From a virus (lineage: Duplodnaviria; Heunggongvirae; Uroviricota; Caudoviricetes): DNA of 64,000 nucleotides. The notes beneath the pieces were generated by a model, which was not told where the DNA came from, searched no databases, and saw only the letters and a list, made by a program, of their open reading frames with translations. Positions 41,761 through 43,643 of the stretch are shown one piece after another. The position numbers and the translations under genes were made by a program. The first letter of the stretch is position 1; every line of letters begins with the position of its first letter. The stretch is from IMG/VR virus record IMGVR_UViG_2721755728_000011; one strand, 5' to 3'.

Positions 41761-42422
41761 GCGCCTTCTCCCTGTACCTGAATCAATGTGAGGTTTCCGC
41801 AGAACACTGCGCCAGTATCGATATACATCTGGTTGGCAAATTTGAGTGGTTTCACTGCTTGCGTATGACCAAAGATGAACGTGTCCGCGCCTTTGATTTC
41901 TTTCACGATCCCGTCTTGTGAGTTGCTGATTCGTTCGCGGTTCCAGATTACCTGCTGATGATCAACTGGCTTTCCAAACTCGTATTTATCACAAGGATAA
42001 TCGGCGTGGCAGATGACATATTTTTTTCCTTTACTCACCAGTTCGATGATTAACGGAAGTTCATCTGCTTTATGGGCAAGAGCTTTAGCTAGAATTTCTT
42101 TGTCGTAATCGAGATTAAAGAACCAGCCACCGCCATTAAGCAGCCAGTGATTGACGTTTCCACGCTCTGATAAGCCATCAATCATCATTTGCTCATGGTT
42201 TCCACGTACAGCTCTGAACCAGGGGAATGTGATTAATTCCAGGCATTCTACGTTCTCTGTACCGCGATCAACCAAATCGCCCACCGAGATAAGCAGGTCT
42301 TTTTTGGTGTCGAATCCTATCGTCTCCAGTTTTTTCATCAGGTTCGTGTAGCATCCATGCAGATCGCCAGCTACCCAAATATTTCGGTATTTGCTGCCAT
42401 CAATTCTTTCGTAGATATTCAT
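41757..42422 (-). CDS. ninI: Ser/Thr protein phosphatase (lambda NinI / orf221)
   Basis: 221 aa with metallophosphatase motifs GDLHG, GDLVDRG, GNHE. Confidence 0.9.
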
Positions 42423-43081
42423 GCAACCTCACTTCTGCTGTTTCGCAGTTTTTTAAGTTTCTGTTGATACTCCGCCTTGATGGCCCTGCACTCTTCGACA
42501 GTCCAGCGATAGCGGTTATGGTTTGATTCGATTTCCTCTACTGCTTCCTGCCCGATGCGGCTAATCAGTTCGACGCGATACGGAACGAGATTTCCGCTTT
42601 TGTGCTGGTTGCACACCACGCATTGCTTGTGAATATTGCGTTCATCAAATCGGAGTTGAGGTGCCGCAGCAGTTGTCCGGTAATGTCCGGCATCCCACTG
42701 AGCAGACGTGAGTGTTCCGCACGAGATACATGGTAAGTCGCGGTCTCTTTCTCTGATGAAGGCGTTTACGGCTTGTTGGGCTTGTTTAATCCAGTAACTG
42801 CGGGGCTTTAAGGCGAGTTTTCGAATCTTAAGTTTATCTTTCTGTTTCTGATCCTCTCGTCGTCGTTTCTTCTCTGCTGCTTTTTCCGCTTTTTCGCGTT
42901 CTTTACTTCGTCGTTCGAGTGCTATCTTGGTTCCACAAATCTCATTACACCAATATTGATTTTGATATTTTGGTATAAACCATTCATTGCAACATTTACA
43001 TTTCCTTCGATAGATTCGCATAAGTGCTCCTTTCGTTGCCGGAAAAATCACCGTAATACTTATCTCGGGCTTCTTCAGCAA
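42419..43081 (-). CDS. ninG: NinG (Rap) recombination protein with replaced N-terminus
   Basis: From CCNEWF onward matches lambda NinG; the native N-terminus MAKPARRRC is found on the overlapping HNH ORF instead. Confidence 0.85.
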
Positions 43082-43643
43082 CTAGTACCGCTAACTCCAG
43101 ATCATCAAAGCATCCGAAGTGTTTACTCTTGCCATGGAATCCTAGCCTAACATTCCATTTTTTCTGTCGTTTGTGCCAAGTAACCCCTCTGCAACCTGAT
43201 TTGCTATTCTTTCGGATCCTTATATTTCTTGAATTTTCTATTGGCAGGCATTCTCTTAAATTTTCTGGCCTATTGTCGGTCCTAATTCCATTAACGTGGT
43301 CAATTTGACCAGCAGGCCAACGATTATGAGTTATGTAAAAAACTAAGACGTGAGTTTTATATCTACGCCCATCTATCATGATCATTGAATAACCGTTGGA
43401 ATCAAAAGTTCCAGCAACACTATTTAATGCTATCCTTCCCTGAGTGGGAACTTTCCATCTAAATACCCCGGTAGATTTATCGAAACTTAGTAACTCAAAT
43501 ATCCTTTTAACAGTTAAATCTTCTCTTTTACGGTTACATCGTCTTCGCGCTGGTTTAGCCATCGCCTTCTTCCTCCGTAATGGTTTTCTGAATTTGGCCA
43601 CCTGAACAGAGCTCACCAAAGCTATGGATGTCGGTATTTCCAC
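42996..43643 (-). CDS. HNH homing endonuclease (HNH_3 plus AP2-like domain), fused to native ninG N-terminus
   Basis: Motifs [32 protein letters not shown] and [20 protein letters not shown]...FGCFDD; probable start at MAKPARRRC (about 43562). Confidence 0.75.

Follow-up and report, generated by a model that had tools for sequence, protein, structure and literature searches.

How can an endonuclease gene occupy the coding sequence of another gene without destroying it? This question is raised by a 64,000-nucleotide (nt) stretch of Caudoviricetes DNA (IMG/VR record IMGVR_UViG_2721755728_000011; hereafter the window, meaning the whole stretch analysed), in which an open reading frame (ORF) for an HNH endonuclease overlaps ninG. 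The product of ninG, NinG or Rap, is a junction-specific endonuclease, and ninG (rap) is a prophage recombination gene. All genes of the locus lie on the minus strand, in a lambdoid prophage region, where a mechanical ORF list gives two overlapping minus-strand frames: 42996..43643 (215 amino acids (aa), GTG start) and 42419..43081 (220 aa, TTG start). An initial annotation had proposed that a homing endonuclease gene was inserted into the 5' end of ninG and remodelled its start. Our analysis indicates that the locus probably holds a free-standing, I-HmuI-like HNH_3 homing endonuclease gene (HEG) with a C-terminal AP2 domain, inserted in the 5' coding end of ninG of a lambda-type prophage and expected to home by cleavage. 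The host gene is kept whole, without intron or intein. Loci with and without the HEG are designated HEG+ and HEG-, respectively, and the cassette-borne substitute 5' end of ninG is referred to as X-type.

The left edge of the insertion is apparent from comparison with phage lambda. Positions 43575..43534 of the window match lambda 42419-42460 at 40 of 42 nt, in a match that begins 10 nt ahead of the lambda ninG start as annotated, or 13 nt ahead of the ATG adopted here. The first 29 nt from this ATG are identical in the window, in lambda and in the HEG- allele L065, bearing out the earlier claim that the endonuclease ORF begins with the NinG N-terminus MAKPARRRC. The native ninF gene continues directly upstream in many relatives (L005, L029, L148), and the resemblance is therefore not due to chance. 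On the right, lambda-like DNA resumes at 42937 (CGTKIALE...). A cassette of 596 nt (43533..42938) hence stands in place of 64 nt of lambda ninG, with the same junctions in five HEG+/HEG- pairs from IMG/VR. Alignment with lambda ninF-ninG and a search for HNH-free alleles, which had been suggested as a check, thereby defined the boundaries exactly, upholding the insertion itself; active homing we infer. The pair formed by L029 (HEG+) and L065 (HEG-) agrees at 99% identity across the 198 nt to the left (ninF and the first 29 nt of ninG) and at 98.6% across the 1364 nt to the right; homology breaks off 29 nt into ninG on the left and restarts at ninG nt 94 on the right. The left junction reads ...CGAAGACGATGTAA|CCGTAAAAGAG... 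and the right junction ...AATGAGATT|TGTGGAACCAAG....

A borderline 20-nt imperfect tandem repeat spans the left junction at 43504-43544 of the window (Tandem Repeats Finder score 52, 80% matches; minus strand, GATGTAACCGTAAAAGAGAA / GATTTAACTGTTAAAAGGAT). It could be a trace of junction formation or a product of chance, and is too weak to build on.

The features of the locus, in window coordinates, are as follows.

43534..43575, minus strand: remnant of the resident locus, comprising the last ~13 nt of ninF with the native ninG ribosome-binding region, followed by 29 nt from the beginning of lambda-type ninG.
43562..43560, minus strand: captured ninG ATG (MAKPARRRC), now the predicted translation start of the endonuclease.
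42938..43533, minus strand: inserted cassette of 596 bp, replacing 64 bp (codons 11-31) of lambda-type ninG, as defined by HEG+/HEG- pairs.
42996..43562, minus strand: HNH_3 plus AP2 endonuclease ORF, 188 aa, identical to WP_001108084.1 ('HNH endonuclease').
43233..43301, minus strand: predicted HNH catalytic motif D88-H89...N101...N110, from the family alignment and the alignment with I-HmuI (1u3e).
43044..43196, minus strand: AP2-type DNA-binding domain, residues ~123-173, predicted from profile, Foldseek and three strands plus a helix.
43027..43032, minus strand: Shine-Dalgarno AAGGAG serving the new start of ninG, located within the 3' tail of the endonuclease ORF; sequence AACGAAAGGAGCACTTATG.
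42938..43021, minus strand: X-type ninG 5' end, ATG plus 27 codons, 28.6% GC, carried by the cassette.
42419..43021, minus strand: complete ninG (rap), 200 aa, from the Pfam NinG match and the RefSeq start, with a 26-nt overlap with the endonuclease ORF.
42419..42937, minus strand: resident lambda-type ninG body, in frame with the cassette; identity to lambda ninG is 96.9% from codon 33 onward.

Counted from ATG 43562, the endonuclease is exactly 188 aa long, refining the ~190 aa given previously. Its HNH_3 domain scores above the Pfam threshold (E 5.5e-11, 42.4 bits, cut-off 24.8), and the protein matches PHROG 99 'HNH endonuclease' at 1.4e-71. The AP2 domain falls below the Pfam cut-off with the single sequence (E 2.5e-4, 21.7 bits, cut-off 33.3) and is recognized through a 15-sequence family profile, which matches the AP2 structures of WRI1 (5e-11) and TEM1 (4e-7) as well as I-HmuI (1u3e; 2.7e-8), and through its fold. 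The AlphaFold2 model (mean predicted local distance difference test score 87.8) has secondary structure across residues 18-173, with strands at 127-130, 135-142 and 145-152 and a helix at 155-173 in the AP2 region. Foldseek ranks the same structures first as the family profile, with weak E-values, and places the AP2 domain on AtERF1 (1gcc) with a root-mean-square deviation of 1.3 A over 51 columns, again with weak E-values. Residues D88, H89, N101 and N110 are invariant across the 15-sequence alignment and line up with the DH...N...N of I-HmuI; by analogy with that enzyme, we take the Asp-His pair to be the general base, with one structural and one metal-binding Asn. By sequence, catalytic residues and predicted fold, the protein is a member of the HNH_3/AP2 phage endonuclease family, and the HNH plus AP2-like composition proposed initially stands on these grounds.

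The protein forms a single cluster of 464 members at 99% identity, and its next relatives are at most 47% identical. Those at 30-47% identity come from T7-like, Felix O1-like, T5-like and other phages, where they bear the label of HNH homing endonucleases, and relatives below 60% identity in the phage collection carry HNH or homing endonuclease annotations. Two contigs carrying some of the closest relatives (P0004, P0007) were examined, and in neither does ninG adjoin the endonuclease gene: one relative lies beside T7-like exonuclease and endonuclease I genes, and the neighbours of the other, on a contig of 1.5 kb, carry no annotation. Of the 55 loci compared, 54 keep the ORF intact.

The endonuclease reading frame ties its expression to the captured start. 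ATG 43562 is the sole in-frame start codon before codon 60, and in ninF-type loci an in-frame stop lies 13 codons upstream of it with no start codon between, so that the full-length protein depends on the captured ninG start. Its reading frame provides the endonuclease with no separate start codon, and translation is thus predicted to begin from the original ribosome-binding site and ATG of ninG, giving a MAKPARRRC fusion. The leader preceding the LTxxxLRxLL block comprises 15 residues here versus 0-8 in family relatives. In residues 1-17 AlphaFold2 predicts no secondary structure and gives lower confidence, which is low over roughly the first 10 of them and again from residue ~171 onward; the low-confidence tail of residues 174-188, which overlaps ninG, reads across the ninG start in the other frame.

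Three other assignments for the gene were examined and rejected. An intron- or intein-encoded endonuclease is contradicted by the lack of any Rfam match at E <= 1 in 42300-44200, with no group I or II intron signal, and by an endonuclease ORF that has its own stop and overlaps ninG in a different frame. A terminase-associated HNH protein of the HK97 gp74 type does not fit a gene placed in the nin region, between ninF (or a 590-aa ORF) and ninG and upstream of Q. A promoter of its own inside the cassette was discarded, since no promoter-like site was found there on the minus strand.

On the ninG side, ATG 43021 lies 5 nt downstream of AAGGAG (43032..43027), and the 28 codons of the X-type end fuse in frame to the resident ninG body at 42937, yielding a complete 200-aa NinG that matches PF05766 at 9.6e-84 over model positions 5-192 of 193. 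The N-terminal cysteines are kept (C8, C11, C24 and C28), in the pattern C-x2-C-x12-C-x3-C versus C-x4-C-x12-C-x3-C in lambda. Natural ninG alleles include an Emek type, with the N-terminus MRKVRRRCKNEEC, and a MAKPARRKCKICK type; other alleles, with the N-terminus MAKPARRKCKICKEWF, have the same C-x2-C spacing as the X-type, as does the natural allele P0044. In Emek, ninF and ninG overlap by 26 nt, with the ninF stop at the TGTAA of Cys8-Lys9, and the endonuclease ORF here has exactly that geometry. To judge from these comparisons, the X-type end is no makeshift restart but is built like natural NinG N-termini. In RefSeq, both phage and genome records annotate NinG from ATG 43021 (200/203-aa form), and the exact 200-aa protein is found on 401 contigs. 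Earlier, NinG had been described as resuming from an upstream-extended start, with its body intact from CCNEWF onward. A new start and an intact body are indeed present; the N-terminus, however, is a complete alternative one beginning at ATG 43021, with lambda-like DNA from 42937.

Base composition sets the cassette apart from its surroundings. The endonuclease-specific part has 39.1% GC and the X-type ninG end 28.6%, versus 48.6% in the ninG body and 51.6% in the 64 lambda nt that were replaced. Because both are GC-poor relative to the ninG body, the endonuclease gene and its companion ninG end appear to form a single AT-rich unit of foreign origin, as far as composition can tell. The two parts were not found apart. 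A search of E. coli genomes for the X-type end returned 537 genomes, 531 with a full match, and none with the X-type end lacking the endonuclease gene; the one partial match examined was an IS2 disruption. In IMG/VR, a degenerate-pattern scan likewise found no X-type end without the endonuclease gene (52 of 52 loci HEG+), and a scan with an endonuclease-specific 51-mer found no endonuclease gene without the X-type end (57 of 57 loci where the sequence allows).

The same gene pair is annotated, at 97-100% identity, in the Shiga toxin 1 (Stx1) phages SH2026Stx1 and AU6Stx1 and in RefSeq E. coli genomes. Among 5426 complete E. coli genomes, the HEG+ arrangement occurs in 512-531 (~10%), and lambda-type HEG- ninF-ninG junctions in 789. 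From IMG/VR, 80 HEG- lambda-type ninF-ninG loci were kept out of at least 594 ninG matches. Identical junctions were found in 62 loci, embedded in at least 11 left-flank classes and 6 right-flank classes that form 18 combinations, the left flanks being either one of several native ninF alleles or the 590-aa-ORF class seen in the window. Nucleotide diversity (pi), computed on a MAFFT alignment of 51 loci, is 0.0041 in the endonuclease-specific part, 0.0014 in the X-type end and 0.031 in the ninG body, so that the cassette is 7-20 times less diverse than the adjoining gene body. The ninG body varies from one HEG+ locus to another, and its haplotypes are interspersed with HEG- alleles; some HEG+ bodies are nearer to HEG- alleles than to other HEG+ alleles (e.g. 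L012 vs L120, 1 difference). In a P22-like prophage of Salmonella Infantis, the cassette differs from that of the window at 4 of 596 positions versus 27 of 519 for the ninG body, with identical junctions. This population pattern is that of a recent spread into diverse backgrounds, as for a free-standing homing endonuclease gene. The cassette is also frequent in polylysogenic Shiga toxin-producing E. coli (STEC) strains with several ninG-bearing prophages (median 2, up to 8 places per genome).

If the gene does home, the process may be pictured as follows. The enzyme would recognize, and then nick or cut, lambda-type ninG in or near the 64 bp replaced by the cassette, to which HEG+ alleles would be immune. 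During co-infection or prophage induction, the break would be repaired from the HEG+ genome and the cassette copied, with crossovers probably falling in the conserved ninG start on the left and in a universally conserved ninG region on the right. Expression would presumably come from the delayed-early pR/nin transcript after induction; it is expected to follow the nin operon because the cassette carries no promoter-like site on its coding strand. The cassette itself appears to have come from an AT-rich phage lineage with its own ninG homologue. Searches for such a donor returned a single distant match (39%) among GTDB species representatives, in a Planctomycetota metagenome-assembled genome; only E. 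coli fragments in a protein search with the 42-aa N-terminus; and, in an exhaustive HMMER search, ordinary NinG N-termini plus one AT-rich NinG-like protein (P0066, RRKCKICKEWFEPTYSNEYWC, 51% identity), with no source among them. We further suggest, tentatively and with more doubt than conviction, that the cassette is a self-immunising 'gene-end replacement' homing element, which would target the N-terminal zinc-finger segment of lambda-type ninG, carry a recoded, cleavage-resistant copy of it with its own ribosome-binding site, and take over the host start.

Several observations weigh against homing by cleavage of ninG. The cleavage target is deduced from what the cassette replaces alone, and free-standing HEGs often cut far from their own insertion site (PMC2988022). 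Outside the cassette, the GTDB, protein and HMMER searches brought up no ninG bearing the substitute 5' end, whether or not accompanied by the endonuclease gene. HEG+ and intact lambda-type HEG- ninG copies coexist, in separate prophages, in the O157:H7 chromosomes NZ_CP038376.1, NZ_CP066759.1, NZ_CP038328.1 and NZ_CP028700.1; it follows that the enzyme is either silent in the lysogenic state, without activity on that allele or directed at another site. The variable endonuclease codons comprise 9 synonymous and 12 non-synonymous ones, a few loci carry variants at family-invariant positions (N101S, P83T), and in the IMG/VR locus L009 the gene is frameshifted (76 aa). The endonuclease looks to be under only moderate constraint, with some copies decaying. 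Lambdoid phages are, moreover, highly mosaic, and ordinary homologous recombination alone could place one cassette in many contexts.

In the four O157:H7 lysogens, the co-resident HEG- copies remain unconverted by the cassette.

One alternative is that the cassette is a passive passenger, inserted once, its endonuclease now inactive or irrelevant, and spread only by ordinary lambdoid homologous recombination through the conserved ninG start and body. The mosaic nin regions with their 18 flank combinations, the presence of both allele types in one chromosome, the ratio of codon changes, the substitutions at invariant residues and the frameshifted copy are all what such a passenger would leave behind. 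We nevertheless consider it unlikely, as 54 of 55 loci retain an unbroken ORF and the window copy keeps its catalytic residues. The reduced diversity of the cassette extends across genera and requires a recent sweep, which a neutral passenger explains poorly, and in the 590-aa-ORF class the left homology arm available for passive exchange is only ~42 nt long. Considerably less probable is that the nuclease serves chiefly as a competition weapon, harming co-infecting or superinfecting lambdoid phages with lambda-type ninG through marker exclusion or interference, with spread as a by-product. Marker exclusion by T4 homing endonucleases is established (PMC2988022), and the abundance of the cassette in polylysogenic STEC would suit this role. 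The role overlaps mechanistically with homing, however, and the gene sits in a repressed delayed-early operon with no promoter-like site on the coding strand of the cassette, so that a lysogen would not be protected.

Two further alternatives concern the reading frames themselves. NinG might have lost its N-terminus and start at the upstream TTG 43081, as the mechanical ORF list would have it, giving a 220-aa protein and the ~85-nt overlap of the initial annotation. This we regard as very improbable: ATG 43021 follows a canonical AAGGAG at 5 nt, the N-terminus that it opens (M-R-I-Y-R-R-K-C-K) aligns with natural starts such as MRKVRRRCK, RefSeq uses the 200/203-aa form, and the Pfam NinG model starts matching only at residue 24 of the 220-aa form. 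The two ORFs do overlap, by 26 nt from ATG 43021; the figure of ~85 nt holds only for the mechanical TTG ORF. The remaining possibility, that the HNH ORF is an ordinary native upstream nin gene whose MAKPARRRC start is coincidental, is already refuted. Relatives do not all have the HNH ORF as a native upstream gene, lambda-type HEG- alleles being common and indeed the commoner state; the 29 nt from the ATG are identical to lambda, with ninF continuing upstream; and the enzyme relatives examined occupy unrelated sites in other phages.

The inserted homing endonuclease gene favoured here has partial parallels in known systems. With the I-HmuI-type HNH_3 plus AP2 phage endonucleases it shares domain order and catalytic residues. 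It differs in being at most 47% identical to proteins outside its own cluster, in residing in a temperate lambdoid nin operon and in being fused to nine host-gene residues without a start of its own; furthermore, I-HmuI is intron-encoded, whereas the Rfam search places the ninG-locus endonuclease outside any intron. The T-even free-standing seg and mob genes home without introns, with flanking donor sequence co-converted (PMC2988022). The ninG-locus HEG resembles them in lacking an intron or intein, in its presence or absence at a fixed site, and in the adjoining donor sequence (here the X-type end) that travels along like a co-conversion tract. Yet seg and mob genes are usually intergenic with their own promoters and starts, whereas this HEG lies inside coding sequence and uses the start of its host gene, and its homing is proposed by analogy. 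HEGs inserted within conserved phage genes whose function must be kept include mobE in Aeh1 nrdA, mobA in T4 gene 60 and seg43(25) in gene 43 (PMC2988022). In mobE/nrdA and mobA/gene 60 the host gene is split, whereas here the insertion severs only 10 codons and provides a complete N-terminal module anew, so that NinG remains one full-length polypeptide.

The genes themselves are already annotated: the SH2026Stx1, AU6Stx1 and WP_001108084.1 records contain the same genes, in the phages including the 590-aa ORF upstream on the opposite strand, and merely name both. Their architecture was not found described in the open-access literature searched, where a search by title and abstract returned nothing on an HNH gene at ninG in lambdoid or Stx phages. 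The locus is a cleanly bounded natural case, in the best-studied temperate phage family, of an HEG occupying coding sequence without destroying the gene, by means of a captured start and a replacement 5' end. Lambda itself has the empty site, and ~10% of complete E. coli genomes, Stx1 phages of O157:H7 among them, have the filled one, so that standard lambda genetics could address homing, target specificity and co-conversion. An active enzyme would drive recombination locally, beside the Q-stx region of Shiga-toxin phages. Should the gene-end replacement proposal be true, an endonuclease gene could live inside an ORF without intron or intein, and with active homing the site, a few kb upstream of Q and stx, would be a recombination hotspot at which Stx and other lambdoid phages exchange their late-regulation and toxin region. 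If the enzyme is inactive, the element would be an ordinary decaying selfish gene, and the main value of the analysis would lie in the corrected annotation, with the endonuclease and NinG starts set and the 9-residue NinG-derived leader explained.

In transcription order (descending coordinates), the locus comprises O, P and ren, two insertion sequence (IS) copies of the IS3 family, the 590-aa ORF, the HNH ORF, ninG, a NinI-type phosphatase gene and Q. The 590-aa ORF (44132-45904, plus strand) runs opposite to the nin operon strand, is AT-rich (34.9% GC) and belongs to PHROG 9230, a family of unknown function; a Pfam search with it gave no match. It also lies upstream of the endonuclease gene in the Stx1 phages SH2026Stx1 and AU6Stx1. 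Together with its flanks, it takes the place of ninF save for the last ~15 nt of the latter, and it seems to be an accessory gene that was inserted here. In the stretch that separates this ORF from the endonuclease gene, a perfect hexanucleotide microsatellite, (AAATAG) x 9.8, occupies 43758-43816. A 60-nt difference sets SH2026Stx1 apart from AU6Stx1 over an identical query span, and may or may not lie in this repeat. A weak terminator-like hairpin followed by a T-run is present on the coding strand at 43690-43706 (minus strand), ~130 nt upstream of the endonuclease start and in the flank of the 590-aa ORF. The two IS3-family copies (46895-48200 and 49129-50430), located between ren/P and the 590-aa ORF, are in direct orientation and 2234 nt apart; each consists of a 108-aa HTH_Tnp_1 ORF and a 295-aa rve ORF, and they are 96% identical over the first 300 nt.

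Downstream, ninH is absent from the window, and the ninG stop and the beginning of the NinI-type phosphatase gene overlap at 42419-42422, as in phage 434, whereas in lambda and the Stx1 phages ninH follows ninG. In one relative (L006, E. coli Z1323CEC0014, 1097-2556), an IS2 element lies in ninG just downstream of the endonuclease gene. In another (L005, E. coli UTME-3, 6213-6725), the same prophage carries, between Q and tRNA genes, a further gene unrelated to this one, with the annotation 'HNH endonuclease signature motif containing protein'.

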